NCBI RefSeq assembly: GCF_046105845.1
Contig: NZ_CP151004.1
From: Escherichia coli
Lineage (GTDB): Bacteria > Pseudomonadota > Gammaproteobacteria > Enterobacterales > Enterobacteriaceae
Length of the DNA: 64,000 nucleotides
Reading direction: 5' to 3' (one strand)
This document shows, piece after piece, positions 9,421 through 43,586 of the stretch; the stretch's first letter is position 1, and each line of letters begins with the position of its first letter. The translations under genes and the position numbers were made by a program. Under the pieces are notes generated by a model, which did no database searches, was not told where the DNA came from, and saw only the letters and a program-made list of their open reading frames with translations.

Positions 9421-9422
9421 GG

Positions 9423-9498: not shown

Positions 9499-9533
9499 GA
9501 TACTACGCTGGATACTACAACTAACTAGGTTAG

Positions 9534-9607: not shown

Positions 9608-9633
9608 TTTACTACCGCTTCCACCTTAGCGAT

Positions 9634-9709
9634 TGGTGGGTCGTGCAGGATTCGAACCTGCGACCAATTGATTAAAAGTCAACTGCTCTACCAACTGAGC
9701 TAACGACCC
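9634..9709 (-). tRNA. lysT: tRNA-Lys (anticodon UUU), first gene of the operon
   Basis: Identical 76-nt tRNA-Lys copy; promoter-proximal position in the minus-strand operon. Confidence 0.97.
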
Positions 9710-10665: not shown

Positions 10666-10674
10666 GCAATTCTC

Positions 10675-11220
<546 letters not shown>

Positions 11221-20588: not shown

Positions 20589-20668
20589 TTTTTATATATT
20601 CTCTGTGGCAAATATTGCTAAACAATGCCCGGGGATTAATTTTTATTACTCACGGAAAGATTTAAATA

Positions 20669-23476: not shown

Positions 23477-23494
23477 CAATTAAGGCTGCAATCA

Positions 23495-24940
23495 ATGGAA
23501 CTTCGAAATAAGAAATTAACCCATGACGAATTCATGACCGAGCGGCAACAGGTACTGAAAACCTGGGAAACCGGCAAGGATGTTGAAAACTTTGAAGATA
23601 GCGTTAAATACCAACAAACCATTCCTGAGCATAAACGCTTCTCTCTTGCGCTGTTGAAAGCAGACAAGGAAGGTAAAACCCTTAGCCAACCGCGCGCAGG
23701 TGTGGCGCTGATGGACGAACACATCGAACTACTGAAAACACTACAAGAAGAGTGCGATCTGCTGCCGAGCACTATCGATGCATATACCCGTCTGAATCGG
23801 TACGAAGAAGCGGCTGTAGGGATTAAAAAATCCATCGAAGCCGGAACCTCTAAACTGAACGGTTTGCCGGTAGTTAACCATGGCGTCGCAGCTTGCCGTC
23901 GCCTCACCGAAGCCCTGCAAAAACCGCTACAGATCCGCCACGGCACGCCAGATGCGCGTCTGCTGGCTGAAATCTCGATGGCCAGCGGCTTTACCAGTTA
24001 TGAAGGCGGCGGCATTTCCTACAATATTCCGTATGCCAAGCGCGTAACGCTGGAAAAATCGATCCGCGACTGGCAGTACTGCGACCGTTTAATGGGGATG
24101 TATGAAGAACACGGGATCCGCATCAACCGCGAACCGTTTGGCCCACTAACGGGTACGCTGATCCCGCCGTTTATCTCGCACTCTATCGCGATAATCGAAG
24201 GATTGCTGGCACTGGAACAGGGTGTGAAATCTATCACCGTTGGTTATGGCCAAGTCGGCAGCCTGACGCAGGATGTTGCGGCGATCCAGTCTCTGCGTGA
24301 ACTTGCACACGAATATTTTCAGAGCTATGGCTATACCGACTATGAATTGAGTACCGTGTTTCACCAGTGGATGGGCGGCTTTCCGGAAGACGAATCGAAA
24401 GCGTTCGCTATTATCTCCTGGGGCGCAGCCGTCGCGGGGATGTCTGGTGCCACCAAAGTCATCACCAAAAGTCCGCACGAAGCCTGGGGAATCCCGACTG
24501 CCGCTGCCAACATTCAGGGGCTGAAAGCCTCCCGCCAGATGCTCAACATGGTCAATGAGCAGAAATTCCCGCCGTGCCCTGCGGTTGAACTGGAAATTGA
24601 ACTGATTAAGAGCGAGGTTCGCGCGGTACTGAATAAAGTGTTCGAACTGGGTAATGGTGATATTGCGCGCGGTACGGTGCTGGCATTTGAAGCGGGCGTA
24701 CTGGATGTGCCGTTTGCGCCAGCCGCCTGCAACGCGGGCAAAATTCTTCCGGTCCGTGACAACACCGGCGCGATACGCGTACTGGAAGCCGGAGCCGTTC
24801 CATTGCCAAAAGATATTCTCGACCTCCACCACGATTACGTTGCGGAACGCGCACGCTTTGAAGGACGCCAACCGACATTCCAGATGGTTGTAGATGACAT
24901 CAATGCTGTATCCCACAGTAAATTAATAGGAAGACCATAA
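23495..24940 (+). CDS. glmE: glutamate mutase (methylaspartate mutase) large E subunit
   Basis: 481 aa; long collinear similarity to Clostridium GlmE/MutE (MELRNKKLT...QPRAGVALMDEHIELL...HQWMGGFPEDESKAF...). Confidence 0.93.
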   Translation: MELRNKKLTHDEFMTERQQVLKTWETGKDVENFEDSVKYQQTIPEHKRFSLALLKADKEGKTLSQPRAGVALMDEHIELLKTLQEECDLLPSTIDAYTRLNRYEEAAVGIKKSIEAGTSKLNGLPVVNHGVAACRRLTEALQKPLQIRHGTPDARLLAEISMASGFTSYEGGGISYNIPYAKRVTLEKSIRDWQYCDRLMGMYEEHGIRINREPFGPLTGTLIPPFISHSIAIIEGLLALEQGVKSITVGYGQVGSLTQDVAAIQSLRELAHEYFQSYGYTDYELSTVFHQWMGGFPEDESKAFAIISWGAAVAGMSGATKVITKSPHEAWGIPTAAANIQGLKASRQMLNMVNEQKFPPCPAVELEIELIKSEVRAVLNKVFELGNGDIARGTVLAFEAGVLDVPFAPAACNAGKILPVRDNTGAIRVLEAGAVPLPKDILDLHHDYVAERARFEGRQPTFQMVVDDINAVSHSKLIGRP

Positions 24941-26181
24941 TGAAAATAAAACAGGCCCTGTTCACCGCTGGCTATTCCTCATTCTATTTCGATGACCAGC
25001 AGGCGATAAAAAACGGAGCGGGTCACGACGGCTTTTTTTATACCGGGGAGCCAGTAACACAGGGGTTTAACGCCGTACGTCAGGCCGGGGAGTGCGTATC
25101 GGTACAGTTGATTCTGGAAAACGGCGCGGTCGCCGTAGGTGACTGTGCTGCCGTACAGTATTCCGGGGCAGGTGGTCGCGATCCACTGTTCCTCGCGGAG
25201 CACTTTATTCCGTTCCTCAACGACCATATCAAGCCATTACTGGTAGGCCGCGATGTGGATGCTTTCCTGCCGAATGCCCGTTTCTTCGACAAATTGCGTA
25301 TTGACGGCAACTTGCTGCATACCGCCGTGCGCTACGGATTATCACAGGCGCTGCTTGATGCTACCGCGCTGGCAACCGGCCGTCTGAAAACTGAAGTGGT
25401 CTGTGATGAATGGCAGTTGCCACGCGTGGCGGAATCCATTCCATTATTTGGTCAGAGCGGCGACGATCGATATATCGCCGTCGATAAGATGATCCTTAAG
25501 GGCATCGACGTGCTGCCCCATGCGCTGATTAATAACGTCGAAGAGAAGCTGGGCTTTAAAGGTGAAAAACTGCGCGAATATGTCCGCTGGCTGTCGGATC
25601 GTATTCTGAGCAAGCGCACCAGCGCACGCTACCACCCTACCCTGCACATCGATGTATACGGCACTATCGGTCTGATCTTCGATATGGATCCGCTTCGCTG
25701 TGCGCAATACATCGCCAGCCTGGAAAAAGAAGCGCAAGGCCTGCCGCTCTACATTGAAGGGCCGGTCGATGCCGGTAACAAGCCCGATCAAATTCGCCTG
25801 CTGTCCGCGATTACCAAAGAGCTGACGCGCCTCGGTTCCGGCGTGAAAATTGTGGCCGATGAATGGTGTAACACCTACCAGGATATTGTTGATTTCACTG
25901 ATGCCGCCAGTTGCCACATGGTGCAAATCAAAACCCCGGATCTGGGCAGTATTCACAACATCGTCGATGCGGTTCTTTACTGCAACAGCCACAGCATGGA
26001 AGCGTACCAGGGCGGCACCTGCAATGAAACTGATGTCAGTGCCCGCACCTGTGTCCACGTCGCCCTTGCCGCTCGCCCTATGCGTATGCTGGTAAAGCCA
26101 GGGATGGGCTTTGACGAAGGCCTCGATATCGTCTTCAACGAAATGAATCGTACTATCGCGCTGTTGCAGGCTAAGGATTAA
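24940..26181 (+). CDS. mal: 3-methylaspartate ammonia-lyase (beta-methylaspartase)
   Basis: 413 aa; start overlaps the glmE stop; strong similarity to Clostridium MAL (AGHDGF.YTG, CAAVQYSGAGGRDPLFLA, ADEWCNT, HMVQIKTPDLG); enolase-superfamily fold. Confidence 0.93.
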   Translation: MKIKQALFTAGYSSFYFDDQQAIKNGAGHDGFFYTGEPVTQGFNAVRQAGECVSVQLILENGAVAVGDCAAVQYSGAGGRDPLFLAEHFIPFLNDHIKPLLVGRDVDAFLPNARFFDKLRIDGNLLHTAVRYGLSQALLDATALATGRLKTEVVCDEWQLPRVAESIPLFGQSGDDRYIAVDKMILKGIDVLPHALINNVEEKLGFKGEKLREYVRWLSDRILSKRTSARYHPTLHIDVYGTIGLIFDMDPLRCAQYIASLEKEAQGLPLYIEGPVDAGNKPDQIRLLSAITKELTRLGSGVKIVADEWCNTYQDIVDFTDAASCHMVQIKTPDLGSIHNIVDAVLYCNSHSMEAYQGGTCNETDVSARTCVHVALAARPMRMLVKPGMGFDEGLDIVFNEMNRTIALLQAKD

Positions 26182-26184
26182 CAA

Positions 26185-27555
26185 ATGGCTCGTTCTTTTA
26201 AAGTCTTATCGCCAACGGCAATCCTCGGGTATGGATTCCCGGAAGAGAGCTTCCGCAAAGCGATGGCAGAATCGCCCGATCTGATCGCCGTTGATGCAGG
26301 CTCTTCCGATCCTGGCCCCCACTACCTCGGAGCGGGCAAACCGTTTACCGATCGCGCAGGGGTCAAGCGCGATCTGCGCTATATGATCACCGCAGGCGTG
26401 CAAAATAATATACCGGTGGTGATCGGAACGGCCGGCGGTTCTGGTGCCGCTCCACACCTGGAGTGGTGCCGAGAAATAATTCATGAGATTGCCCGGGAAG
26501 AGCACCTCTCGTTCTCGATGGCGCTGATCCCGGCAGACGTTGACAAAGCCATCGTCCACCAGGCGCTGGATAACGGCAAAATCACGGCGCTGGATTTTGT
26601 CCCGCCGTTAACCCACGACGCGATTGACGAAAGTACGTATATCGTCGCGCAAATGGGCATCGAACCCTTCCAGCAGGCGCTGAAAGAAGGCGCGCAAGTG
26701 GTGCTGGGCGGGCGCGCTTACGACCCGGCCTGCTTTGCTGCGCTACCGATCATGCAAGGCTTTGATGAAGGTCTGGCGCTGCATTGTGGGAAAATCCTTG
26801 AATGCGCGGCAATCGCCGCAACGCCCGGCTCAGGCTCTGACTGTGCGATGGGCATCATTGATGACAACGGCTTTACGCTGAAGACATTTAATCCGAAGCG
26901 TAAATTTACCGAAACGTCAGCAGCTGCACACACACTGTATGAGAAATCCGATCCCTACTTCCTGCCTGGACCTGGCGGCGTGTTGAACCTGAAAGACTGC
27001 ACATTTAAAGCGGTCAATGACGGCGAAGTGTACGTCAGCGGTTCTAAGCATGAAGAAACGCCGTATGCCCTGAAACTGGAAGGTGCACGACGGGTGGGCT
27101 TCCGCTGTCTGACCATCGCAGGAACGCGCGACCCGATCATGATCGCCGGGATCGATAAAATCATCGATGAAGTCAAAACCAGCGTTTCGCGTAACCTGTC
27201 GCTCGACGATGACAGCATTCACATCAATTTCCACCTGTACGGCAAAAACGGGGTGATGGGCGACCATGAACCGATGCAAACTGCCGGGCATGAGCTGGGG
27301 ATTGTCCTAGATGTAGTTGCGCCGACCCAGGAAATTGCCAACAGCGTTTGCTCGCTGGTGCGCTCTACTATGCTGCACTACGGCTATGAAAACCGCATCG
27401 CTACCGCAGGCAACCTGGCGTTCCCGTTCTCCCCTTCTGATATCCAGGGCGGGCCGGTATACGAATTTTCCATATATCACCTGATTGAAGCCAACGACGC
27501 TCTGCGTTTTGATTTCCATATTGAACAGGTGACGCCAGAAGGAGTTCAGGCATGA
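26185..27555 (+). CDS. uncharacterised protein, possibly DUF1446/AtuA-like family (assignment from memory, unverified)
   Basis: 456-aa ORF 3 nt after the mal stop in the same operon; Gly-rich motif GTAGGSGAAP; no enzymatic family recognised with certainty. Confidence 0.75.
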   Translation: MARSFKVLSPTAILGYGFPEESFRKAMAESPDLIAVDAGSSDPGPHYLGAGKPFTDRAGVKRDLRYMITAGVQNNIPVVIGTAGGSGAAPHLEWCREIIHEIAREEHLSFSMALIPADVDKAIVHQALDNGKITALDFVPPLTHDAIDESTYIVAQMGIEPFQQALKEGAQVVLGGRAYDPACFAALPIMQGFDEGLALHCGKILECAAIAATPGSGSDCAMGIIDDNGFTLKTFNPKRKFTETSAAAHTLYEKSDPYFLPGPGGVLNLKDCTFKAVNDGEVYVSGSKHEETPYALKLEGARRVGFRCLTIAGTRDPIMIAGIDKIIDEVKTSVSRNLSLDDDSIHINFHLYGKNGVMGDHEPMQTAGHELGIVLDVVAPTQEIANSVCSLVRSTMLHYGYENRIATAGNLAFPFSPSDIQGGPVYEFSIYHLIEANDALRFDFHIEQVTPEGVQA

Positions 27556-27869
27556 AACAGTCAATTGTCTCACTGGCGCAAGTCATTCGTTCGAAAAATG
27601 CCGGACCTTACGAACTGGTTTTAGATATTTTATTTAAAACCAAAGAAAACTATGAGCGAGTTAAATCATCAGGGCAATTAACCCCAGAACTGATCGCGCG
27701 CTTATATCATGTTGAACCTGACTTTATTCATCGTATTGTCTGGTTTGATCCTTCTAACGCAGTAAAAATCGTCATGCCACGAGATATTATCTCCGGGAAT
27801 GTAGGTGACAATGATGTCTATGGTGCACAGCAACATGCACCTTTATTAAATATGAGTTTCGATTTGTAA
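27552..27869 (+). CDS. small uncharacterised protein, possibly DUF4387-like partner of the preceding gene
   Basis: 105-aa ORF whose ATG overlaps the upstream stop (ATGA), indicating translational coupling. Confidence 0.7.
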   Translation: MKQSIVSLAQVIRSKNAGPYELVLDILFKTKENYERVKSSGQLTPELIARLYHVEPDFIHRIVWFDPSNAVKIVMPRDIISGNVGDNDVYGAQQHAPLLNMSFDL

Positions 27870-28029
27870 AAATCCGAATACTTTTAGCCAACTGACATCC
27901 CGTCACTTATTGCAGTTCAACACTTCAGCTATTTGTAAGGTTGTAATAGCAGGTAGATGCCTGAATCTCTATTCAGGCATCTACTTCTCCTGATTCTGAT
28001 TTATCGCCGTGCACCTGATGGAGGAAAAA

Positions 28030-29310
28030 ATGAAGAAAATAAGTTTAACCACGATGATTCTTTTGGCGCTGGTACTTGGAATGATTATCGGCGTAGTGCT
28101 CAATAACACTGCTTCACCGGAAACCGCAAAACTCTATGCGCAAGAAATATCGATATTCACGACGATTTTCTTACGACTGATAAAAATGATTATCGCTCCG
28201 TTAGTGGTCTCTACCCTGGTGGTAGGTATAGCTAAAATGGGCGATGCCAAAGCCCTTGGTCGTATTTTTTCTAAAACACTCTTTTTATTTATTTGCGCCT
28301 CATTGCTGTCAATTGCCTTAGGCTTGATAACAGTAAATTTCTTCATGCCAGGCACAGGAATTAATTTTGTTGCACACGGAGTCGAAACCACCGGAGTGGT
28401 CGCGTCAGAACCCTTTACGCTAAAAGTATTTATTTCGCATGCTTTCCCCACCAGCATTGTCGATGCCATGGCGCACAATGAAATTTTGCAAATCGTGGTG
28501 TTCTCAATTTTCCTCGGCTGTAGCCTGACGGCGATTGGCGAGAAAGGCAGCGCCATCGTTCACGCCTTAGATTCGCTGGCACATGCCATGTTAAAGCTCA
28601 CTGGCTACGTCATGCTCTTCGCTCCCCTGACCGTATTCGCTGCTATTTCAGCATTGATTGCTGAACGAGGACTGGCAGTTATGGTGAGCGCCGGGATCTT
28701 TATGGGTGAATTTTATTTCACCATGTTATTACTTTGGGTGCTGCTTATCGGTCTGGCCATCGTTTATGTCGGCCCCTGCATCAGACGCCTGACCCGCGCC
28801 CTTTCGGAACCCGCCCTGCTGGCATTTACCACATCCAGTTCTGAAGCGGCTTTTCCGGGAACGCTTGAAAAACTGGAGCAATTTGGCGTTTCCCCCAAAA
28901 TTGCCAGCTTTGTCTTACCCATTGGCTACTCATTTAATCTCGTTGGATCAATGGCCTACTGCTCCTTCGCCACAGTTTTCATCGCCCAGGCCTGCAATAT
29001 CCATTTATCCATCGGTGAGCAAATCACCATGCTGTTGATCCTGATGTTGACCTCGAAAGGAATGGCTGGCGTACCACGCGCCTCAATGGTGGTTATCGCC
29101 GCCACGCTCAACCAGTTCAATATTCCGGAAGCGGGGCTGATCTTGCTGATGGGCGTTGATCCGTTCCTTGATATGGGGCGTTCCGCGACAAACGTCATGA
29201 GCAACGCAATGGGCGCTGCGATGGTGAGTCGGTGGGAAGGCGAACATTTCGGCGAGGGCTGTCGGGGTAAAGCATTAAAACCCAATGAATCGAACGTTGC
29301 TCTGCCCTGA
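28030..29310 (+). CDS. dicarboxylate/amino acid:cation symporter (GltP/DctA family), probable glutamate or C4/C5-dicarboxylate importer
   Basis: 426 aa from MKKISLTTMILLALVLGMIIG with GGAGG RBS 6 nt upstream; multi-TM profile typical of the DAACS family; ORF-track GTG start at 28009 rejected. Confidence 0.85.
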   Translation: MKKISLTTMILLALVLGMIIGVVLNNTASPETAKLYAQEISIFTTIFLRLIKMIIAPLVVSTLVVGIAKMGDAKALGRIFSKTLFLFICASLLSIALGLITVNFFMPGTGINFVAHGVETTGVVASEPFTLKVFISHAFPTSIVDAMAHNEILQIVVFSIFLGCSLTAIGEKGSAIVHALDSLAHAMLKLTGYVMLFAPLTVFAAISALIAERGLAVMVSAGIFMGEFYFTMLLLWVLLIGLAIVYVGPCIRRLTRALSEPALLAFTTSSSEAAFPGTLEKLEQFGVSPKIASFVLPIGYSFNLVGSMAYCSFATVFIAQACNIHLSIGEQITMLLILMLTSKGMAGVPRASMVVIAATLNQFNIPEAGLILLMGVDPFLDMGRSATNVMSNAMGAAMVSRWEGEHFGEGCRGKALKPNESNVALP

Positions 29311-29417
29311 GGGGGATCTTAAGCAATCAGAAGCCAATGACTACGCATTTTTATAAGCCGGATCATGAAGTTAGACGGCAATTAAGTAACACTAACGTTT
29401 AAGGTGAAAAGTGAAAT

Positions 29418-31070
29418 ATGTCAAAACCATTTATCTGGCAAGAACCGTTTCTACAAAATAAAGACGGTACAGAATATACATTAATTAGCGATCAGCATAT
29501 TACAGTAACGGAATTAGACGGCGAAGAAGTGATAAAAATCGCTCCTGAAGCATTAACGCTGCTTGCCCGGCAGGCATTTTATGAAGCCTCTTTTTTCTTA
29601 CGTTCCGCTCATTTGCAACAGGTCGCCAGCATTCTTAACGATCCGCAGGCCAGTAGTAATGATAAATACGTTGCGTTGCAGTTATTACGTAATGCTGAAG
29701 TCTCAGCAAAAGGGGTATTACCCAACTGTCAGGATACCGGCACCGCAACTATTGTTGCCAGTAAAGGGCAACAGATATGGACGGGAGGTAACGACGCTGA
29801 AGCCTTAAGCAAAGGCATTTACAGTACTTTCCAGGAAAATAATCTGCGCTTTTCACAAAATGCGCCGCTGGATATGTATACCGAAGTCAATACGCAAACC
29901 AATCTCCCGGCGCAGATTGATATCAGCGCTGTCGCTGGTAATGAGTACCATTTTCTCTGTGTTAATAAAGGGGGCGGCTCCGCCAATAAAGCCGCGCTTT
30001 ATCAGGAAACCAAATCCCTATTGCAACCAGAAAAACTGACCGCATTTTTAATCGAAAAAATGAAATCGCTGGGCACCGCTGCCTGCCCGCCTTACCACAT
30101 CGCCTTTGCCGTCGGAGGGCTTTCAGCCGATCAAACCTTAAAAGTTGCCAAGCTGGCCTCAACGAAATATTACGACAATTTGCCCACCAGCGGAAACGAG
30201 CAGGGACAAGCATTCCGTGATATTGAGCTGGAAAAAGTGTTGCTCGAGGCCAGTCAGCAATTTGGTATTGGTGCGCAATTTGGGGGTAAATATTTCGCTC
30301 ATGATATTCGCGTCATTCGTCTGCCGCGTCACGGTGGCTCTTGCCCGATAGCTATGGCGCTCTCCTGTTCTGCCGATCGCAATATCAAAGCAAAAATTAA
30401 CAAGCACGGTATCTGGCTGGAAAAACTCGAACACAATCCGGGGCAATATATTCCAGCCTCACTGCGGGAAGAAAACCACGCGCAACATGTACAACTGGAT
30501 CTAAACCGTCCGTTGCGTGACGTGATGCAGGATCTCGCCAGATTACCGGTAGGCACCCGCGTGTCGTTAAATGGTCCCATCGTAGTGGCGCGCGATATCG
30601 CCCACGCCAAAATAAAAGCGCGGCTGGATAGCGGCGAACCGATGCCGGATTACCTGAAGCATCATATTGTCTATTACGCTGGCCCGGCGAAAACACCTGA
30701 TAACATGGCCTGCGGTTCACTGGGTCCAACCACGGGCGGTCGAATGGACGGTTATGTCGATACCTTCCAGGCGGCTGGCGGCAGCCTGGTGATGTTATCG
30801 AAAGGTAACCGCAGCCAGCAGGTCACCGATGCCTGTCACAAACATGGCGGCTTCAATCTGGGAAGTATTGGCGGTGCAGCTGCGTTACTGGCGCAAGAAT
30901 ATGTCAAAAGTCTGCGTTGCCTGGAATACCCGGAGCTGGGTATGGAAGCGGTGTGGATGATGGAAGTGGAAAATCTGCCCGCATTCATTCTGGTAGATGA
31001 TAAAGGCAATAATTTCTTTAGTCAGTTTGAACAGCAACACCGCTGCGCCAGTTGCCCTGCGGGACATTAA
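29418..31070 (+). CDS. fumD: class I (Fe-S, FumA/FumB-type) fumarate hydratase paralog, probable mesaconase/fumarase
   Basis: 550 aa, collinear with E. coli FumA/FumB throughout (PFIWQEPF..., CQDTGTA, GGGSANK, CPPYHIA, HGGSCP) but clearly divergent; sits in the methylaspartate operon. Confidence 0.9.
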
Positions 31071-31079
31071 GGAAAATGA

Positions 31080-31682
31080 ATGGAAGCGCGAATTTCAACT
31101 GAACGGCATGTGCAGCGCCAGCAGAAATTGAAGGAACAGGTCGATACGCGCGTCGCGGCGGCGATAGAGAAAAAAGGGATCTTGATTGTTTTCACCGGCA
31201 ACGGCAAAGGGAAATCCACTGCCGCGTTTGGTACTGTAACGCGCGCGGTGGGTCATGGCAAAACGGTGGGGGTTGCGCAGTACATCAAGGGGCAATGGGA
31301 CAACGGCGAATACAACCTTCTCCAGCCGCTGGGGGTTGAGTTTCATATTATGGGAACCGGTTTTACCTGGGAGACACAGAACCGGCAAGCGGATATCGAC
31401 GCGGCGAAAGAGGTCTGGTCGGAAAGCAAACGGATGCTGGCTGACAAGCGTTACGACTTAGTGGTGCTTGATGAGCTGACCTATATGCTGGCTTACCATT
31501 ATCTGGATACCGAAGAAGTGATCGCTTCTCTGCAAAACCGCCCGGCACAACAAAGTGTCATTGTCACCGGACGCGGTTGCCACAGTCAGATATTAAAAAT
31601 GGCGGATACGGTCAGCGAAATCCGCCCCGTCAAACATGCTTTTGATAACGGCATTCAGGCCCAGCCGGGTATCGACTGGTAA
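31080..31682 (+). CDS. cob(I)yrinic acid a,c-diamide / cob(I)alamin adenosyltransferase (BtuR/CobA/CobO family)
   Basis: 200 aa; GNGKGKSTAAFG P-loop and collinear similarity to E. coli BtuR; AAGGAAA RBS. Confidence 0.9.
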   Translation: MEARISTERHVQRQQKLKEQVDTRVAAAIEKKGILIVFTGNGKGKSTAAFGTVTRAVGHGKTVGVAQYIKGQWDNGEYNLLQPLGVEFHIMGTGFTWETQNRQADIDAAKEVWSESKRMLADKRYDLVVLDELTYMLAYHYLDTEEVIASLQNRPAQQSVIVTGRGCHSQILKMADTVSEIRPVKHAFDNGIQAQPGIDW

Positions 31683-31685
31683 TAA

Positions 31686-31717
31686 CTGCGCCTGGCATCC
31701 CGCCAGGCGCAGGTTTT
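31686..31717. terminator. bidirectional hairpin terminator between the operon end and the convergent LysR gene
   Basis: ctgcgcctgg-catcccg-ccaggcgcag stem-loop followed by tttt; overlaps the LysR stop codon on the other strand. Confidence 0.55.
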
Positions 31718-32621
31718 ACATCTCCTGCGGTACAACCGATTTCGCCAGCAACCATTCACGAAATTGCTGCAAGTGCGGTGAGTCAGACTTCTCTTCCTGC
31801 CACGTCATAATAAAACGATTACCGGTACGAATAGGCACATCACAGGGGATCACCATATCGCCACTATCCAAATCATGTTGAATAGCGAAACGTGGTAACA
31901 GCGCCACGCCGAGATTCGAGCGCACGGCGGCAATCAGCATTGAAAGCAAATCGAAACGTGGTCCGTTGTTGACCAGCGGACTGCTAACGCCAGATAAGGC
32001 AAACCACTCTTCCCAGCCAGTAATACGGGTACTTTGATGCAGAAGTGGTAACTCTGTAAGCAGTTCTGCCACTGACAGTTTTTGATCGGACATTGTAAGC
32101 AAACTGCCGCTGCATACCGGCAAAATCTCCTCTTCAAAGAGATATTCTACTTCCGCCCAGGGCGCGCAAAAATTTTCGCGCATAATGACAGCATCGTACT
32201 CCCGATTAAGAAAATCGCCGTTATTAGCTAAAGAGTGAATATTAACAATAATATCGGAATGTAACTTTGTGAATTCATGTAAATTTGGGATTAACCAGTG
32301 GGTACTAAACGTAGGATTCACGGCAAGTTCAATAACCTTAACCGTAGGCTGCCAGGTCATAATGGTATTGGTATCGCGTTCCAGCTTATTTAATGTTTCT
32401 TTTACTATCCCCAGGTAATACTTCCCTGCATCATTAAGAAAAATACGTTTTTTAGAGTGTGAAAATAACGGAGTATGTAAAAATTCCTCCAGCGCACTCA
32501 CTTGTCTGAATACTGCACTTTGGGTCAACGCTAACTCCTCTGCCGCTCTGGTATAACTTTCATGACGTGCGACGACCTCAAAAGTCACCAGCAGCTCCGT
32601 TTTAGGTATTTTTCCTCGCAT
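31716..32621 (-). CDS. LysR-family transcriptional regulator
   Basis: 301 aa; N-terminal wHTH (ELLVTFEVVARHESYTRAAEELALTQSAVFRQVSALEEFL) plus substrate-binding domain; convergent with the operon. Confidence 0.9.
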   Translation of the reverse strand: MRGKIPKTELLVTFEVVARHESYTRAAEELALTQSAVFRQVSALEEFLHTPLFSHSKKRIFLNDAGKYYLGIVKETLNKLERDTNTIMTWQPTVKVIELAVNPTFSTHWLIPNLHEFTKLHSDIIVNIHSLANNGDFLNREYDAVIMRENFCAPWAEVEYLFEEEILPVCSGSLLTMSDQKLSVAELLTELPLLHQSTRITGWEEWFALSGVSSPLVNNGPRFDLLSMLIAAVRSNLGVALLPRFAIQHDLDSGDMVIPCDVPIRTGNRFIMTWQEEKSDSPHLQQFREWLLAKSVVPQEM

Positions 32622-33185
32622 AATGCCGTCCCTTAAAAATAGTTTAAACCATCAAAAATACATTACTTATTACGAAGTAATGGTAACCAAAGCAGCAATA
32701 AATAATTTATAAGAATCATGATTGACATTTATAACCCAGTAAGCCTGGCGTGACAAATATCTTAATCAGATAATAATAATCCGAAAAGCACAGCGCCTTT
32801 CGAATTATCCGGAATCACATTAAGTGAAAATTATTAAATTGATATCATTTATCATATCTGTGGATATTATGATAAACAATCAACAAAGATTTTATTTTTG
32901 ATTTATAGCATATCCCTCTAAGAATTTTTGCGATGCTGCAATATCCGGGGTAAAGACCCGATCCTGGCTGACAAATGGCACGACTTGACGATAAGCGGTG
33001 AACATCGCTTTTGTTGATTTACTTAACGCTACGGTCAAACGCTGGGAAGCCAGTGCATCAGGTAACGATTCGAAATTCGCCGTCGTTCTTATTCGTGGCT
33101 TGCGGTCGGTTGCGGCAATCCACAGTGGCTGTGGTCATGCAGTCAAGCCAGCGGTCAGATTTCGACCGTGGTTAACATTTAAGGC

Positions 33186-33286
33186 ATAAAAAAGGCCATC
33201 ATATGATGGCCAACCATGTCGAAACCGACAGCCCTTCGCCATTCCTGTAGAGGGAAGCGGCGAGGGCTATTTCTTATTACAGATAT
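33186..33286 (-). ncRNA. sdhX: probable SdhX (RybD) sRNA from the sucD 3' UTR with intrinsic terminator
   Basis: About 100 nt between the sucD stop and a ggccatcat/atgatggcc hairpin followed by a U-run on the minus strand; positional equivalence to the K-12 sucD 3'-UTR sRNA; sequence identity not verified. Confidence 0.45.
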
Positions 33287-34156
33287 TTATTTCAGAACAG
33301 TTTTCAGTGCTTCACCGATATCCGCCAGGCTGCGAACGGTTTTCACGCCTGCGGCTTCCAGAGCAGCGAATTTCTCATCCGCAGTCCCTTTCCCACCGGC
33401 AATGATCGCACCCGCGTGGCCCATACGTTTGCCTTTCGGCGCAGTCACACCAGCGATGTAACCCACAACAGGCTTGGTAACGTGCTCTTTGATGTACGCA
33501 GCCGCTTCTTCTTCAGCGCTACCGCCGATCTCACCGATCATCACGATCGCTTCGGTCTGCGGATCTTTTTCGAACATTTCGAGGATGTCGATAAAGTTAG
33601 AGCCAGGGATCGGGTCGCCGCCGATACCGACACAGGTCGACTGACCGAAACCGTAATCCGTGGTCTGTTTAACCGCTTCATAGGTCAGTGTACCGGAACG
33701 GGAAACGATACCCACTTTACCCGGTTTGTGAATGTGACCCGGCTGGATACCGATTTTGCATTCACCCGGAGTGATTACGCCCGGACAGTTCGGGCCGATC
33801 ATACGAACGCCTGCTTCATCCAGTTTCACTTTCACGGTCAGCATATCCAGCGTCGGGATGCCTTCAGTGATGGTGATAATCAGTTTGATGCCTGCATCGA
33901 TGGCTTCCAGAATGGAGTCTTTGCAGAACGGTGCTGGTACGTAGATAACAGAAGCGGTAGCGCCAGTAGCAGCAACAGCTTCACGAACGGTGTTGAACAC
34001 CGGCAGGCCGAGGTGGGTGGTGCCGCCTTTACCTGGGGTTACGCCGCCAACCATTTTAGTGCCGTATGCAATAGCCTGTTCTGAGTGGAAAGTCCCCTGG
34101 CTACCGGTAAAGCCCTGGCAGATAACCTTGGTGTTTTTATCAATTAAAATGGACAT
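33287..34156 (-). CDS. sucD: succinyl-CoA synthetase alpha subunit
   Basis: 289 aa; matches E. coli SucD. Confidence 0.97.
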
Positions 34157-35322
34157 TATTTCCCCTCCACTGCGGCAACAACCTGCTGAGCTGCATCCGT
34201 CAGACCTTTTGCTGCAATAATATTCAGGCCGCTGTCAGCCAGTTTCTTCGCGCCGAGTTCGGCGTTGTTACCTTCCAGACGTACCACGACCGGTACGTTA
34301 ACACCCACTTCCGCTACCGCGCCGATGATACCGTCAGCGATCAGGTCGCAACGAACGATACCGCCGAAGATGTTAACCAGAACGGCTTTCACTTTGTCGT
34401 CAGAGAGGATGATTTTGAACGCTTCGGTTACACGTTCTTTGGTTGCGCCGCCGCCAACGTCAAGGAAGTTAGCTGGTTCGCCGCCGTGCAGTTTAACGAT
34501 GTCCATCGTACCCATCGCCAGACCTGCGCCGTTAACCATACAACCGATGTTACCGTCCAGCGCAACGTAGTTCAGTTCCCACTGTGCAGCCTGTGCTTCA
34601 CGTGGATCTTCCTGCGACTGGTCACGCATTTCGCGCAGATCAGGCTGGCGGAACAGTGCGTTGCCATCAGCGCCCAGTTTGCCGTCGAGGCAAATCAGAT
34701 CGCCCTGTTTGGTGATGACCAGCGGGTTGATTTCGATCAGCGCCAGGTCGCGCTCCAGGAAAATGGTCGCCAGGCCCATGAAGATTTTGGTGAACTGCTG
34801 AACCAGTTTACCTTCCAGACCCAGTTTGAACGCCAGCTCGCGTCCCTGATACGGCATCGGGCCAGTCAGCGGATCAAGCGCAACTTTGTGGATCAGGTGC
34901 GGAGTTTCTTCCGCCACTTTTTCGATTTCCACGCCGCCTTCGGTGGAGGCCATAAAGACCACACGACGGGAACTACGGTCAACAACGGCACCGAGATACA
35001 GCTCTTTAGCGATATCGGTCGCTGCTTCAACCAGAATCTGGTTAACCGGTTGGCCATTGGCATCTGTTTGATACGTTACCAGACGCTTGCCCAGCCAGTT
35101 TTCTGCAAAAGCACGGATGTCTTCTTTGCTGTTTACAACTTTCACACCGCCCGCTTTACCGCGGCCACCAGCGTGAACCTGACATTTCACTACCCACGGA
35201 CCGGCACCGATTTTTGAAGCGGCTTCTTCTGCTTCGCGCGGAGTAGTACAGGCATAACCCACCGGTGCTGGTAAGCCATAGCGGGCAAAAAGTTGTTTTG
35301 CCTGATATTCATGTAAGTTCAT
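34156..35322 (-). CDS. sucC: succinyl-CoA synthetase beta subunit
   Basis: 388 aa; matches E. coli SucC. Confidence 0.97.
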
Positions 35323-35415
35323 GTGTTCTGTCCATCCTTCAGTAATCGTTATCTTTTAAACCGTAGACCGACACCCTATCCACGTCGGTCTACAGTGCAG
35401 GTGAAGCTTAAACTA

Positions 35416-36633
35416 CTACACGTCCAGCAGCAGACGCGTCGGATCTTCCAGCAACTCTTTGATCGTTACCAGGAAGCCCACGGATTCGCGACCATCGATC
35501 AGACGGTGATCGTAGGACAGCGCCAGGTACATCATCGGCAGGATCTCAACCTGACCATTCACCGCCATCGGACGATCTTTGATAGCGTGCATACCCAGAA
35601 TTGCGCTCTGCGGCGGGTTGATGATAGGCGTTGACATCAGGGAACCGAACACACCACCGTTGGTGATGGTGAAGTTACCACCGGTCAGATCTTCAACCGT
35701 CAGCTTGCCGTCACGGCCTTTAACTGCCAGCTCTTTGATTTTCTTCTCGATATCTGCCATGCCTAGGGTATCGACATCACGCAGTACCGGCGTCACCAGG
35801 CCGCGCGGCGTAGAAACCGCCATGCTGACGTCGAAATAGTTGTGGTAAACCACATCATCGCCGTCGATAGACGCGTTCACTTCCGGGTAACGTTTCAGGG
35901 CTTCAACCACCGCTTTCACGTAGAAGGACATAAAGCCCAGACGAATACCGTGACGTTTTTCAAACGCTTCACCGTACTGCTTACGCAGATCCATAATCGG
36001 CTTCATGTTGACTTCGTTGAACGTGGTCAGCATGGCGGTGGAGTTTTTCGCTTCCAGCAGACGCTCTGCCACACGCTTACGCAGGCGAGTCATCGGGACA
36101 CGTTTTTCGCTACGTGCAGCCAGAGCCGGTTGCGCCACCGGAGCAGCCGCTGCCGGAGCAGACTCTTTCGCCGGGGCTTTCGCCAGATGTTTTTCCACAT
36201 CTTCACGAGTCAGACGACCACCCACACCGGTGCCTTTAATGGCGCTGGCGTCGAGGTTGTGTTCAGCCAGCATGCGGCGGATCGCCGGGCTTAACGCATC
36301 GTTGTTTTGCTCTTCCAGAGACGCCTGCTGGCGTTGCGCCGGAGTGGACGCTTTCTCTTCAGATTTGGCGCTGGTTTCTTTACCCGCGCTGTTGCCTTCA
36401 CGCAGGCGACCAAGGATTTGACGAGACGTTACCGTTGTACCTTCATCTTCCAGAACCGCATCCAGAATGCCGTCTGCTGATGCCGGTACTTCCAGTACCA
36501 CTTTGTCAGTTTCGATTTCTACCAGCACTTCATCACGTACGACTGCGTCGCCGGGTTTTTTATGCCAGGTTGCGACGGTGGCATCGGCTACGGATTCAGG
36601 CAGGTCAGGGACCAGAATATCTACGCTACTCAT
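35416..36633 (-). CDS. sucB: 2-oxoglutarate dehydrogenase E2 (dihydrolipoyllysine succinyltransferase)
   Basis: 405 aa; lipoyl domain, Ala/Pro linker, catalytic domain; matches E. coli SucB. Confidence 0.97.
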
Positions 36634-36647
36634 TGTGTATCCTTTAT

Positions 36648-39449
36648 TTATTCGACGTTCAGCGCGTCATTAACCAGATCTTGTTGCTGTTTCTGGTGAA
36701 CGGACATATACCCTACCGCCGGAGAGGCGGAGGCCGGGCGGCCTGCATAACGCAGAGAAGCCCCAAACGGAATCACTTCACGGAAATGATGCTGGCTGCA
36801 GTACCATGCGCCCTGGTTGAGCGGCTCTTCCTGGCACCAGACAAAATCCTTGACGTGAGCAAACTGCTGCAACACTTCCTGCATCGCTTTATGCGGGAAC
36901 GGGTAGAGTTGCTCGATACGCACAATGGCGACATCGTGTTGATTGTTCTTACGACGTTGTTCCAGCAGGTCGTAATAAACCTTACCAGAACACATCACTA
37001 CACGCTTAACGCCCTTCGGATCAAGCTCGTCGATTTCACCGATGGCTGGCAGGAAGGTGCCGTTCGCCAGTTCTTCGAGGCTGGAAACCGCCAGCGGATG
37101 ACGCAGCAGGGATTTCGGCGACATCACGACCAGCGGACGACGCATCCCGCGCAGCGCCTGACGACGCAGCATGTGGTAAACCTGTGCCGGGGTAGACGGT
37201 ACGCACACCTGCATGTTTTGCTCAGCGCAAAGTTGCAGATAACGTTCCAGACGCGCGGAGGAGTGCTCCGGCCCCTGCCCTTCGTAACCGTGCGGCAGCA
37301 ACATCACCAGACCACACATCCGGCCCCATTTCTGTTCGCCAGAGGAGATGAACTGGTCGATAACCACCTGAGCACCGTTAGCGAAGTCACCGAACTGTGC
37401 TTCCCAGATAGTCAGAGTGCGTGGTTCTGCGGTGGCATAACCGTATTCAAACGCCAGCACGGCTTCTTCTGACAGTACGGAGTCCCAGACACGAAACGCG
37501 CCCTGACCGTTATGGATGTGTTGCAGCGGCGTGTAAGTGGAACCGTTAGACTGGTTGTGGATCACCGCGTGGCGGTGGAAGAAGGTACCGCGACCGGAGT
37601 CTTCACCCGACAGGCGAACCGGAATGCCTTCGTCAACCAGCGTGGCGTAAGCGAGGTTTTCCGCGCCGCCCCAGTCGAACAGTTTCTCACCAGCTGCCAT
37701 CGCCTGGCGATCGCCATAAATCTTGGCAACGCGAGACTGCATTTCAACTGCTTCCGGCACCGTGCTGATGCGTTTAGCCAGTTCCTGCAGGCGCTTCATC
37801 TCAACTTTGTTCGGGTACTCTTCGTCCCATTCGTGGTTGAGGTACGGCGACCAGGTGAAAGAGTGCATGTTCATCGGACGCCACTCTGCCACTACGCAAT
37901 CGCCAGCATCCAGCGCATCGCGGTACAGGTTAACCATCTCGGTGGCATCTTCGAGCGTCGCCACTTTTTCTTGCTCCAGCTTGTCAGCGTAGATTTTGCG
38001 CGGCGTCGGATGTTTTTTGATTTTCTGATACATCAGCGGCTGAGTTGCGCTCGGCTCGTCGGCTTCGTTATGGCCATGACGGCGGTAGCACACCAGGTCG
38101 ATGAAGACATCACGTTTAAAGGTGTTACGGAAATCGAGCGCCAGACGGGTCACAAAGGCAACGGCTTCCGGATCATCCGCGTTAACGTGGAAAATCGGTG
38201 CCTGAACCATCTTACCGATATCAGTACAGTACGGCGTCGAACGGGCATCCAGCGGGTTAGAGGTGGTGAAGCCAACCTGGTTGTTGATAACGATACGTAC
38301 CGTACCGCCAACTTCATAACCACGCGCTTTCGACATGTTCAGGGTTTCCTGAACCACGCCCTGCCCGGTCACTGCGGCGTCACCATGAATGGTGATTGGC
38401 AGCACTTTGTTGCTGCTCGGCTCATCAAGTCTGTCCAGACGGGCACGAACAGAACCGATAACGACCGGGCTTACAATCTCAAGGTGAGACGGGTTAAACG
38501 CCAGCGCCAGGTGCACCAGGCCGCCATCGGTCTGGAAGTCAGACGAGAAGCCCATGTGGTATTTCACGTCGCCCGTGCCGAGGTGTTCTTTATGTTTACC
38601 GGCAAACTCGTCGAACAAGTCTTGCGGTTTTTTACCCAGCACGTTCACCAGCACGTTCAGACGGCCACGGTGCGCCATCCCGAGAACCACTTCGCGGGTG
38701 CCGCTGTTGCCAGCGTGGCGGATCATCTCTTTAAGCATCGGGATTAACGCGTCACCGCCTTCCAGCGAGAAGCGTTTTGCGCCAGGGAATTTTGCGCCGA
38801 GGTAACGTTCAAGGCCTTCAGCGGCGGTCAGTTCGCTTAAGAAGCGTTTTTTCTCTTCGCTATTGAAAGTCGCGCGACCAGACTCGATACGCTGTTGGAT
38901 CCAGCGTTTTTCTTCGGTGCTGGTAATATGCATATACTCGGCACCAATCGGGCCGCAGTAGGTTTGCTTGAGGGCTTCCAGCAGCTCGCCGAGTTTCATG
39001 GTTTCTTTGCCGCTGGCAAATGAACCGACGTTGAAGGTCTCCTGGAAGTCTGCTTCGGTCAGATCGTGGAAAGACGGATCCAGATCGGCCACTTTATCTT
39101 GCTGCCACAGTCCCAGCGGATCGAGATTCGCATGCTGGTGACCACGGAAGCGGTATGCGTTAATGAGCTGCAGGACTTTAACCTGCTTCACATTGGTGTC
39201 AGGGTCGGAGATCGTTGAAGAGTAACGTGAAGCGTCTTTCGCCAGGCGGCGGAAATATTCACGCGTTTGAGAGTGGAATTGATCCGGTTTGACTCCCGTA
39301 CCAGGTAACTGCTGGAACGTCGAACGCCAGTTAGCGTCAACCGAGTCAGGATCGGTTAAGAAGTCTTCATAGAGCTGTTCTATCCAGCTCTGGTTTGCGC
39401 CAGAGAGGTAAGAAGAGTCCAACCAGGCTTTCAAAGCGCTGTTCTGCAT
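36648..39449 (-). CDS. sucA: 2-oxoglutarate dehydrogenase E1 component
   Basis: 933 aa; matches E. coli SucA. Confidence 0.97.
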
Positions 39450-39619
39450 CGTGATCCCTTAAGCATCTTTTTTATGCTTACTTCGCCGTGGATACTACCA
39501 CGCACAGTGATGTGCGTGCCGGGGTTCACTTGCGAGCTCTTGTCTACGTAGTGGCTCGCGAAGGAACCTTTAAAAACTGTCTTAGTGTCAGGGGCAGTTT
39601 TTAAAGATTTCCTGAATAG

Positions 39620-39636
39620 CCGGGGGATTTCCCCGG
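39620..39636 (-). other. GC hairpin in the sdhB-sucA intergenic region
   Basis: Palindrome ccggggaaatcccccgg (minus strand) 14 nt after the sdhB stop, lacking a U-run. Confidence 0.4.
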
Positions 39637-39649
39637 CATCAACATTTAA

Positions 39650-40366
39650 TTACGCATTACGTTGCAACAACATCGACTTGATATGGCCGATGGCGCGCGT
39701 CGGGTTCAGCCCCTTCGGACATACACTGACGCAGTTCATGATGCTGTGACAGCGGAATACACTGAATGCATCGCTCAAACCGTCGAGGCGGCTGTCAGTC
39801 TCGGTATCACGGCTATCGATCAGGAAACGATATGCCGCTAACAAGCCTGCCGGGCCGATAAACTTATCGGGATTCCACCAGAAAGACGGACAAGAGGTTG
39901 AACAACATGCGCAGAGAATACATTCATACAGCCCGTCGAGTTTTTCGCGCTGCTCTGGCATCTGTAAATGCTCGCGAGCTGGCGGATTTTGTCCATTATT
40001 CAACAGGTAAGGCTTAATTTTCTCATATTGCGCATAGAATTGTCCCATGTCTACCACCAAATCGCGGATCACCGGTAAACCTGGCAGCGGGCGAATCACA
40101 ATCTTCTTGCCCGGCTGGTTGAGTGCCGAAATCGGGGTAATACAGGCCAGACCATTCTTGCCGTTCATGTTCAGACCGTCGGAACCGCACACACCTTCAC
40201 GGCAGGAGCGACGGAACGACAGGCTGGGATCTTTCTCTTTCAGCTGGATAAGCGCATCCAGCAGCATCATGTCACGACCTTCTTCCGCTTCCAGGGTGTA
40301 ATCCTGCATACGCGGAGCATCATCAACATCCGGGTTATAGCGATAAATTGAAAACTCGAGTCTCAT
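39650..40366 (-). CDS. sdhB: succinate dehydrogenase iron-sulfur subunit
   Basis: 238 aa; Cys clusters; matches E. coli SdhB. Confidence 0.97.
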   Translation of the reverse strand: MRLEFSIYRYNPDVDDAPRMQDYTLEAEEGRDMMLLDALIQLKEKDPSLSFRRSCREGVCGSDGLNMNGKNGLACITPISALNQPGKKIVIRPLPGLPVIRDLVVDMGQFYAQYEKIKPYLLNNGQNPPAREHLQMPEQREKLDGLYECILCACCSTSCPSFWWNPDKFIGPAGLLAAYRFLIDSRDTETDSRLDGLSDAFSVFRCHSIMNCVSVCPKGLNPTRAIGHIKSMLLQRNA

Positions 40367-40381
40367 TTTCCTGTCTCCGCA

Positions 40382-42148
40382 TTAGTAAGTACGAATCTTC
40401 GGCGGGAATGCCGGGCGCAGTTTCGGTTCCATGTTGACGCTTCGGCGCGTCATGGATTCCGACTCTGGCAGATACAGGGAGTGGCACAGCCAGTTTTCAT
40501 CATCACGATCCGGGAAGTCGAAGCGGCTATGCGCGCCACGGCTTTCGGTACGGAAGTTGGCAGAAACAGCCGTTGCATACGCCGTTTCCATCAGGTTATC
40601 CAGTTCCAGGCACTCAACGCGCTGGGTGTTGAACTCGCTGGAAGTGTCATCCAGACGGGCATTTTTCAGACGCTCGCGGATCACTTTCAACTGCTCAAGC
40701 CCTTTCGCCATCGCATCACCTTCACGGAAGACCGAGAAGTTATGCTGCATACATTCTTGCAGCGCTTTACGAATCGCCACCGGATCTTCACCGTTACGAT
40801 TATTGTTCCAGCGGTTCAGACGATCCAGAGACGCTTCAACATCAGACTCGCTGGCATCGCGCAGTGCGCCCTGCTCGGCGATAGACTCTTGCAGATGCAG
40901 ACCTGCCGCACGACCAAAGACCACCAGGTCCAGCAGCGAGTTGCCGCCCAGACGGTTAGCGCCGTGTACCGATACACAAGCGATTTCACCAACGGCAAAC
41001 AGCCCCGGAACCACCACATCTTCGCCTTTCTCGTTCACAGTCAGCGCCTGACCGGTCACTTTGGTCGGAATACCGCCCATCATGTAGTGACAGGTTGGGA
41101 TAACCGGAATCGGCTCTTTCACCGGATCAACGTGAGCGAAGGTACGGGAGAGTTCCAGGATACCCGGCAGACGGGATTCGAGAACTTCTTTACCCAGGTG
41201 GTCAAGTTTCAGTTTTGCGTGTGGCCCCCACGGACCATCACAGCCGCGACCTTCACGGATTTCGATCATGATGGAACGCGCCACCACGTCACGGCCCGCC
41301 AGGTCTTTGGCGTTCGGCGCATAACGCTCCATAAAGCGTTCGCCATGTTTGTTCAGCAGATAACCGCCTTCACCACGGCAACCTTCGGTGACCAGTACGC
41401 CCGCTCCTGCAATGCCGGTCGGGTGGAACTGCCACATTTCCATATCCTGTACTGGTACGCCTGCACGGATAGCCATGCCGACGCCGTCGCCAGTGTTAAT
41501 GTGGGCGTTGGTGGTGGACTGATAAATACGCCCTGCCCCGCCAGTCGCCAGCACGGTAGCGCGGGCTTTGAAATAAACCACTTCACCAGTTTCGATGCAC
41601 AGTGCGGTACAACCGACCACCGCGCCATCGGCGTTTTTCACCAGATCCAGCGCATACCATTCGGAGAAAATAGTGGTGTGGTTTTTCAGGTTCTGCTGAT
41701 AAAGGGTGTGCAACAGTGCGTGACCGGTACGGTCAGCTGCCGCCGCAGTGCGTGCCGCCTGCTCGCCGCCGAAGTTTTTCGACTGGCCGCCAAACGGACG
41801 TTGATAGATACGACCATCATCAAGGCGCGAGAACGGCAGGCCCATGTGTTCGAGCTCCAGAATCGCTTCCGGCCCGGTTTTACACATATATTCAATCGCG
41901 TCCTGGTCACCGATATAGTCCGAACCTTTTACGGTGTCGTACATATGCCATTCCCAGTTATCTTCATGGGTATTACCCAGCGCAACGGTAATGCCGCCTT
42001 GCGCAGAAACGGTATGGGAACGGGTCGGGAAGACTTTAGAGAGCAGCGCACAGGTCTGACCGCTCTGGGAAATTTGCAGCGCCGCGCGCATACCTGCGCC
42101 ACCGGCACCAATCACAACTGCATCAAATTCTCTGACTGGCAATTTCAT
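40382..42148 (-). CDS. sdhA: succinate dehydrogenase flavoprotein subunit
   Basis: 588 aa from [24 protein letters not shown]; ORF-track start 4 codons upstream rejected. Confidence 0.97.
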
Positions 42149-42495
42149 CACACACCCCACACCACAACGAATCCATAAATCACGTAAACCACCAGTGCAA
42201 CGACAATCACCAGTTGCAGCATCAGGCGCAAAGCCAGCGGTTTAACGTAGTCGGTCAACACCTGCCACATGCCGATCCAGGCATGGATCAAGATAGAAAA
42301 CAGCGCCAGCAGGGTGAACACTTTGGTGAACGCAGAGGCGAAGAAACCGATCCAGACTTCATATGTCAGCTCGCCACTGGTAGCGAAAAAACCGACCATA
42401 TAAATGATGTAGAGCGTCAGGACGATAGCGGTAGCGCGAACGAGGATAAAATCATGTACGCCATTGCGTCCTAATGCGGAGGCGTTGCTTACCAT
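42148..42495 (-). CDS. sdhD: succinate dehydrogenase membrane anchor subunit
   Basis: 115 aa; matches E. coli SdhD. Confidence 0.96.
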
Positions 42496-42878
42496 ACGAG
42501 GACTCCTGCGAGAAGTGAAAGCACGACAGTAATAACAAAGGAGATTTTGGCGGAGCGTTTACCCGCTTCGAATGTTTCTTCCAGATAGCCAAAATCCATC
42601 ATCATGTGGCGAATACCTACGACGACGTGATACGCCAGAGCGGTAAGGATGCCCCACATGATAAATTTGACGAAGAAGCTGCCCATAATCGCGGAAGCTT
42701 GCTCGAAACCTTCAGGGGAAGAGAGGCTGGTACCCAGAAGCCACAGCAGGATGCCCACTGCAACAAAGGTGATCACACCGGAAACGCGATGGAGAATGGA
42801 CGCTATCGCCGTGATGGGGAACCGGATGGTCTGTAGGTCCAGATTAACAGGTCTTTGTTTTTTCACATTTCTTATCAT
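42489..42878 (-). CDS. sdhC: succinate dehydrogenase cytochrome b556 subunit
   Basis: 129 aa from [21 protein letters not shown]; ORF-track start 5 codons upstream rejected. Confidence 0.95.
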
Positions 42879-43586
42879 GAATAACGCCCACATGCTGTTC
42901 TTATTATTCCCTGGGGACTACGGGCACAGAGGTTAACTTTCTGTTACCTGGAGACGTCGGGATTTCCTTCCTCCGGTCTGCTTGCGGGTCAGACAGCGTC
43001 CTTTCTATAACTGCGCGTCATGCAAAACACTGCTTCCAGATGCGAAAACGACACGTTACAACGCTGGGTGGCTCGGGATTGCAGGGTGTTCCGGAGACCT
43101 GGCGGCAGTATAGGCTGTTCACAAAATCATTACAATTAACCTACATATAGTTTGTCGGGTTTTATCCTGAACAGTGATCCAGGTCACGATAACAACATTT
43201 ATTTAATTTTTAATCATCTAATTTGACAATCATTCAACAAAGTTGTTACAAACATTACCAGGAAAAGCATATAATGCGTAAAAGTTATGAAGTCGGTATT
43301 TCACCTAAGATTAACTTATGTAACAGTGTGGAAGTATTGACCAATTCATTCGGGACAGTTATTAGTGGTAAACAAGTTTAATAATTCGGATTGCTAAGTA
43401 CTTGATTCGCCATTTATTCGTCATCAATGGATCCTTTACCTGCAAGCGCCCAGAGCTCTGTACCCAGGTTTTCCCCTCTTTCACAGAGCGGCGAGCCAAA
43501 TAACAAACGGGTAAAGCCAGGTTGATGTGCGAAGGCAAATTTAAGTTCCGGCAGTCTTACGCAATAAGGCGCTAAGGAGACCTTAA

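Follow-up and report, generated by a model that had tools for sequence, protein, structure and literature searches.

sdhX, the gene for a 3′UTR-derived sRNA, at the border of a variable chromosomal segment in an Escherichia coli genome

The 101 nucleotides directly downstream of sucD in the stretch of Escherichia coli DNA analysed here (64,000 nt of contig NZ_CP151004.1, hereafter the window) are almost certainly sdhX, the gene for the Hfq-dependent, 3′UTR-derived sRNA SdhX (formerly RybD). The element occupies positions 33186..33286 on the minus strand; its first base is the one immediately 3′ of the stop codon of sucD, and from 33286 down to 33186 it reads AUAUCUGUAAUAAGAAAUAGCCCUCGCCGCUUCCCUCUACAGGAAUGGCGAAGGGCUGUCGGUUUCGACAUGGUUGGCCAUCAUAUGAUGGCCUUUUUUAU. 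Alignment with the K-12 gene (b4764, NC_000913.3 765050–765150) was colinear base for base and gave 99 identities over 101 positions. The two differences are G83A, located in the four-nucleotide terminator loop, and G100A, located beyond the run of six U; nt 1–82 are the same in both. This agrees with the initial annotation, which had placed an sRNA of the SdhX type in the roughly 100 nt after the sucD stop and proposed an alignment to K-12 sdhX as well as a check of the seed region for ackA pairing. The interval it named, 33186–33286, is the exact counterpart of the K-12 sdhX annotation, the seed is identical to that of K-12, and the strong hairpin and U-run described for its end are present as a 7-bp stem followed by six U. 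The position of sdhX, its identity to the K-12 gene, its structure, its complementarity to ackA and its distribution in the population are direct observations, and at the level of sequence nothing speaks against the identification. Judged on the same grounds, the copy is a standard allele of an already known gene, functionally indistinguishable from that of K-12. SdhX is a textbook 3′UTR-derived sRNA, the understanding of which is unchanged by this copy.

In RefSeq, the K-12 genome carries an ncRNA gene sdhX directly after sucD, 2 nt short of the stop codon of the convergent mngR. The label is confined to K-12; for the matching sites of the other genomes the feature lists return “none”. In terms of annotation, sdhX deserves to be called in this genome as well. 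A search with Rfam 15 identified no family reaching the gathering score within 33186..33286, and at E ≤ 10 the region 32700–33500 gave only a 15-bit match to RyhB and one of 6.7 bits to tmRNA, neither better than chance. Most likely the missing match is explained by Rfam 15 having no SdhX model, and not by an aberrant element.

Folding of the 101-nt RNA gave −41.3 kcal/mol, compared to a mean of −24.5 kcal/mol (sd 3.1) for shuffled sequences (z = −5.4), and none of the 200 shuffles was as stable. The structure predicted for the window allele is the same as that of the K-12 allele. It comprises a 5′ stem-loop (nt 19–57; 33230..33268, minus strand), which contains C34, and a Rho-independent terminator with an Hfq-type 3′ end, located at 33188..33211 on the minus strand by a terminator scan (hairpin 33194..33211, U6 33188..33193). 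The scan covered 1.3 kb and returned two terminator-like sites, including the sdhX 3′ end. The terminator features a 7-bp stem (GGCCAUC/GAUGGCC, five G–C pairs) capped by the loop AUAU and followed by the six U, and it equals that of K-12 apart from loop nt 83. Due to G83A, the stem-loop GGCCATCATATGATGGCC (33194..33211) is a perfect 18-nt palindrome. Across E. coli alleles this loop position is G, A or T, and from these variants it seems to be unconstrained. The 3′-terminal 40 nt of SdhX fold with −12.7 kcal/mol and leave the seed unpaired. In the predicted full-length fold, four seed bases (CGAC) are paired in a small hairpin, and the seed is therefore predicted to be fully open in the short form only.

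Natural variation was compared with the predicted structure for eight Escherichia alleles. The variable positions nt 4, 5, 36, 83 and 100 are unpaired, in a loop or past the U-tail, and within the 5′ stem the variable positions are nt 28, 45, 46 and 47. In E. albertii (L013) the changes at 28 and 47 are compensatory (C28U/G47A, converting a C–G into a U–A pair), which supports the existence of the 5′ stem; this stem belongs to the part of SdhX that is specific to E. coli and pairs with katG. In UPEC957C, A45G keeps its pair (U–A to U–G), and only the variant at nt 46 (G–U to G–G) breaks a predicted pair. These data also bear on the notion that the window copy is a silent relic, in which the two substitutions or the altered downstream context (the convergent gene being lost) block termination or accumulation. 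Indeed, nt 83 and nt 100 differ from K-12, and the DNA past nt 103 is unrelated to that of K-12. However, nt 83 is the very loop base that is naturally G, A or U across alleles, and nt 100 lies downstream of the U6 run and is A in all examined alleles but those of K-12, E69 and E1V33. Moreover, the window allele has the same predicted fold and folding energy as that of K-12, and the same 101-nt allele is found with 100% identity in other genomes, e.g. FDAARGOS_497. A silent relic is thus highly improbable, and the element is treated as a regular sdhX allele in the following.

The parental mRNA of SdhX is encoded by the sdhCDAB–sucABCD operon, which is intact in the window (33287..42893, minus strand; tblastn and ORF list). 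When the eight operon proteins of strain PCN033 were compared to the window with tblastn, identities of 98.5–100% were obtained, seven of them over the full length and sdhD as a single alignment of aa 1–94 of 115. The sucD gene is a 289-aa ORF (33287..34156, minus strand) with a TAA stop codon at 33289..33287, and its product is 100% identical to E. coli SucD. A sigma-70-like scan revealed no credible promoter-like site near the sucD 3′ end, which fits SdhX biogenesis by processing. Alternatively, the RNA could be made from its own promoter inside sucD, as in the case of MicL, and not by processing of the operon mRNA. One weak minus-strand match was indeed found (33732..33705, 9/12), the sole one on this strand; it lies some 420 nt upstream of the stop codon of sucD. 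The total of three promoter-like matches is no excess over the 2.0 ± 1.4 seen in shuffled sequences. Published work on SdhX likewise reports neither a transcription start site nor a conserved promoter and demonstrates dependence on RNase E (PMC6393394). Taken together, the probability of an internal promoter is close to negligible, and release from the operon transcript is the preferred route.

Along this route, SdhX would be transcribed as the final ~100 nt of the sdhCDAB–sucABCD mRNA, ending at the intrinsic terminator of the operon, liberated by RNase E as forms of ~101 nt and ~38 nt, and then bound by Hfq. Its single-stranded seed UUCGACAUGGU would pair over the start codon and the UCG second codon of ackA and repress acetate kinase synthesis, which would tie expression of the TCA-cycle operon to acetate/acetyl-phosphate metabolism. 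E. coli SdhX would additionally repress fdoG (via G62) and katG (via the C34 region). The data on processing into ~101-nt and ~38-nt species come from Salmonella and K-12 (PMC6393394, PMC9438474), for which Hfq association and in vivo repression of AckA by SdhX have been established as well (PMC6393394, PMC9438474). By analogy to this literature, transcription, RNase E processing, Hfq binding and repression should take place in the present strain too. The expected cleavage region GG/UUUCG (nt 61–67) is the same as in K-12, and the published length suggests that the ~38-nt form should begin within the GG/UUU stretch (nt 61–65).

The seed UUCGACAUGGU (nt 64–74, core CGACAU; defined in PMC6393394) is found at 33213..33223 on the minus strand and is identical to that of K-12. 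It sits just upstream of the terminator stem and is preceded by G62 and the GG/UUU stretch. Both C34, involved in katG pairing, and G62, involved in fdoG pairing, are present and unchanged from K-12; the numbering of SdhX and the designation of seed, G62 and C34 are those given by Miyakoshi et al. 2019 (PMC6393394). Prediction of a duplex between full-length SdhX and ackA was discarded, as it ignores intramolecular structure and gave unrealistic 90-nt duplexes; instead, only the seed segment entered the calculation, with shuffling as the control. The K-12 ackA sequence was used, the strain's own ackA, like katG and fdoG, lying outside the window. Nucleotides 63–74 of SdhX form 10 bp (nine Watson–Crick pairs and one G–U) with K-12 ackA −2..+8 (CCAUGUCGAG) at −15.3 kcal/mol, and only 1.4% of the shuffled ackA leaders pair as well with the seed. 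The region −30..+30 of ackA is identical in 5421 of 5424 complete E. coli genomes, a degree of conservation taken here to stand in for the strain's own gene.

Potential targets within the window were considered as well. The class I fumarase/mesaconase gene fumD (start at 29418), which belongs to the flexible segment described below, could be envisaged as an SdhX target in the manner of Salmonella fumB. This candidate was rejected because its start, AUGUCAAAA, has UCA in place of UCG; the change from UCG to UCA abolishes SdhX regulation of E. coli fumB and yfbV (PMC6393394). The seed complement CATGTCGA is found at four sites in the window, compared to 2.07 expected, and 11% of the shuffles reach four, i.e. 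the number is not significant. One of these sites is sdhX itself and another one lies within sucA. The latter is a perfect 8-nt complement to the seed core (CAUGUCGA; 38330..38337, minus strand) in the sucA coding region, part of the same operon mRNA.

Across the population, sdhX was identified in 5425 of 5426 complete E. coli genomes, in each case with at least 90% identity. The segment nt 50–82, which includes the seed, is identical in 5367 of the 5426 records, compared to 4697 for nt 1–49; it should be noted that these counts are not phylogenetically independent. The sole natural disruption of sdhX seen among the 5426 genomes is an IS1 copy in FDAARGOS_944 (L004 5060..5885). It is inserted inside sdhX with a 9-bp target duplication, TCGACATGG, which corresponds to the seed core, and parts the operon from a seed-plus-terminator copy. 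Loci beyond E. coli were located by an exact 19-mer, a search pattern by which nt 61–79 are fixed. Nine matches were obtained, with E. fergusonii, E. marmotae and E. ruysiae not among them. Three of the nine (Vogesella, Acidobacteria, Phycisphaerales) were dismissed as chance hits, and one “Citrobacter sp.” MAG proved to be E. coli-like. Conservation between genera is confined to the seed core and the U-stretch (PMC6393394), in agreement with our comparison to C. amalonaticus sdhX.

Conversely, the DNA beyond sdhX is highly variable. Four unrelated types of sdhX–cydA interval account for 5406 of the 5425 genomes. Type A consists of mngR-mngA-mngB, as in K-12 (3867 genomes). Type B holds an intact convergent RtcB-family gene, a hut-like cluster, a LysR gene and a methylaspartate/glutamate-fermentation cluster (157 genomes), and type C, to which the window as well as O157:H7 and PCN033 belong, the LysR gene and the methylaspartate cluster without rtcB-hut (835 genomes). 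Type D is short and features a TPR pseudogene only (547 genomes, e.g. Nissle 1917). All four are shared through GGCCUUUUUU(A/G)U, i.e. up to sdhX nt 101, and become unrelated within 1–3 nt beyond; between window and K-12, homology ends at 33184, two bases past nt 101. Further flanks, beginning at the same point after the sdhX U-tract, were observed in E. albertii and strain E69. The sucD–cydA interval is a replacement hot spot, the left edge of which is found directly behind the sdhX U-tract in every variant, and sdhX lies next to an island because it is the last element of a core operon. An rtcB-type junction, albeit with different scars, is also present in E. whittamii (L017) and in Escherichia sp. 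E1V33 (L019; cryptic lineage), and on these grounds the sdhX/rtcB junction is old within the genus.

Independently, we noted that convergent genes end inside the sdhX U-tail or at most 2 nt from it, both for the rtcB-family gene (L003 12098..12101) and for mngR (K-12, L001 1654..1656). On the opposite strand the sdhX hairpin has no T-run following it; transcription coming from the convergent rtcB-family gene or mngR might thus continue across sdhX in the antisense direction.

In the window, the flexible segment extends from sdhX to the cydA upstream region (19215..33183) and replaces mngR-mngA-mngB of K-12. Homology resumes at 19214 when compared to K-12, or at 19479 when compared to the TPR-type genomes, and ~13.7–14 kb stand in place of the 5.9-kb mngRAB segment. 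The segment includes glmS, glmL, glmE and the genes for methylaspartate ammonia-lyase, an AtuA-family protein and a DUF4387 protein, as well as a symporter, the class I fumarase/mesaconase FumD, cobO, a LysR gene and two ORFs with low GC content. The cluster has been described before as one for glutamate fermentation, with FumD as its mesaconase (PMC4682846). The first intact gene on the sdhX side is that of the LysR-family regulator (31716..32621, minus strand; Pfam HTH_1 and LysR_substrate, and RefSeq annotation of near-identical genomes). At the cydA-proximal end, two ORFs of 314 and 140 aa (19644..20588 and 20669..21091, plus strand) have 35–39% G+C; neither gave a Pfam match, and both are “hypothetical” in RefSeq for near-identical genomes. 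The longest direct repeat common to both segment boundaries is 8 nt, compared to a shuffle mean of 8.2, and no integrase was found in the gene list of the segment. Given repeats at chance level and no integrase, classical signatures of an integrative island were rejected.

Two observations on the surroundings may be added. In PCN033 an IS200C copy is located between the LysR gene and cobO (L002 21721..22426), which the window does not carry at the corresponding site (31683..31715). Elsewhere in the window, at 8652..9709 and 10636..10774 (minus strand), Rfam identified a cluster in which three RtT elements are interspersed among seven tRNA genes, along with a CpoB/ybgF intercistronic RNA thermometer (142 bits). 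This is the ordinary content of the E. coli tol-pal/lysT region and shows the window to be inverted relative to the K-12 map.

From sdhX to the LysR gene, the “intergenic” DNA measures 565 nt and holds four scraps of two genes (32892..33189); 157 other E. coli genomes carry both genes intact. On the plus strand, 33142..33189 corresponds to aa 451–465 and the stop codon of the RtcB-family protein and 33087..33158 to aa 375–398, as identified by tblastn and blastn against the FDAARGOS_497 gene (L003 12098..13495); the latter is intact and matches Pfam RtcB with E = 1.4e-95. The TAA stop codon of this remnant (33187–33189) overlaps sdhX nt 98–100. On the minus strand, tblastn against a HAL/PAL/TAL ammonia-lyase gene of the hut-like cluster (L003 20336..22006) revealed aa 378–397 at 33083..33024 and aa 511–556 with the stop codon at 33032..32892. 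Between the flanking co-linear blocks, ~9.7 kb of the type B sequence of FDAARGOS_497 (L003) are missing from the window. The scraps are scars left by deletion of this ~9.7-kb rtcB-hut segment, and type C is a deletion derivative of type B, since 32892..33189 is a patchwork of type B gene scraps. The recent events next to sdhX were thus deletions, not an insertion.

These data put the surroundings of sdhX in a different light than initially proposed. That the terminal region of an island abuts the sRNA was recognized correctly; the flexible segment adjoins sdhX, with K-12 homology ending at 33184. The “large insertion” stands insofar as a large segment of ~13.7–14 kb is present, but it is not a simple recent insertion: it replaces the 5.9-kb mngRAB segment, its junction is common to other Escherichia, and the local changes are deletions. 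That retention of sdhX next to the insertion signals selection cannot be concluded from the adjacency by itself. With sdhX present in 5425 of 5426 genomes and in all four contexts, retention is the rule and calls for no special event. Likewise, adjacency to the island alone is no evidence of selection, because sdhX forms the 3′ terminus of the core sdhCDAB–sucABCD transcription unit and as such is present in every context.

A better case for constraint on sdhX can be made from the near-invariance of nt 50–82, the junctions 1–3 nt past the U-tract and the deletions sparing the terminator, and the compared sequences support such a constraint. It may act on the terminator/3′UTR no less than on the seed. 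Miyakoshi et al. reported that removing the entire 3′UTR reduces SucD and hampers growth on acetate, while changes in the seed or the 3′UTR body that keep the terminator leave SucD unaffected (PMC6393394). Taken to the extreme, the stretch could be kept solely as operon 3′UTR and terminator, serving sucD mRNA stability and the insulation of neighbouring genes, with sRNA function being irrelevant. Besides the SucD data, this would be compatible with all four flanks starting right behind the U-tract, as selection on any terminator would give. Still, the least variable part is the seed segment, which lies outside the terminator (5367 of 5426 identical for nt 50–82, but 4697 for nt 1–49), and across genera it is the seed core and the U-stretch that are conserved (PMC6393394; C. 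amalonaticus). Furthermore, experiments in K-12 have established regulation by an RNA that is identical over nt 1–82. We therefore consider maintenance as a mere 3′UTR and terminator unlikely.

On this basis, the 3′ end of sdhX can tentatively be viewed as the hard edge of the replacement hot spot, with purifying selection on the sRNA/terminator setting the start of the flexible region and the rtcB-type junction perhaps being older than the K-12 mngR junction. This is a possible reading, short of an even chance. It is suggested by the four E. coli flanks and those of E. albertii and E69 starting at the U-tract, and by independent island deletions in three Escherichia lineages that stop short of the terminator. 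If true, the point from which a flexible genome region can extend is set by selection on a 3′UTR sRNA/terminator module. The angle is only mildly new, namely sdhX as the constant left border of a replacement hot spot with four alternative contents; these cassettes and the island end decaying by deletion may be of interest for work on genome plasticity and island decay.

In comparison to known systems, the window element resembles K-12 SdhX in position, length, seed, C34, G62, terminator stem, U6 and predicted fold. It differs in its downstream neighbour, which is mngR in K-12 and the decayed end of an rtcB-family gene of the methylaspartate island in the window. Salmonella SdhX1 (87 nt) and SdhX2 (38 nt) similarly originate from the operon 3′ end and are released by RNase E (PMC6393394). 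They share the seed core CGACAU, directed against codons 1–2 of ackA, and a terminator with U-tail. Conversely, Salmonella SdhX does not have the katG-pairing 5′ region and carries U in place of G62 (PMC6393394); the window element is the E. coli version. These two differences account for the different target sets, which according to the same study include fumB and yfbV in Salmonella and fdoG and katG in E. coli (PMC6393394). In a wider context, the 3′UTR-derived, Hfq-dependent sRNAs CpxQ, SroC, NarS and MalH share both the architecture, i.e. an mRNA 3′ end with an intrinsic terminator and an upstream single-stranded seed, and the RNase E-dependent biogenesis (PMC9438474), whereas their sequences, parental operons and targets are unrelated to those of SdhX.
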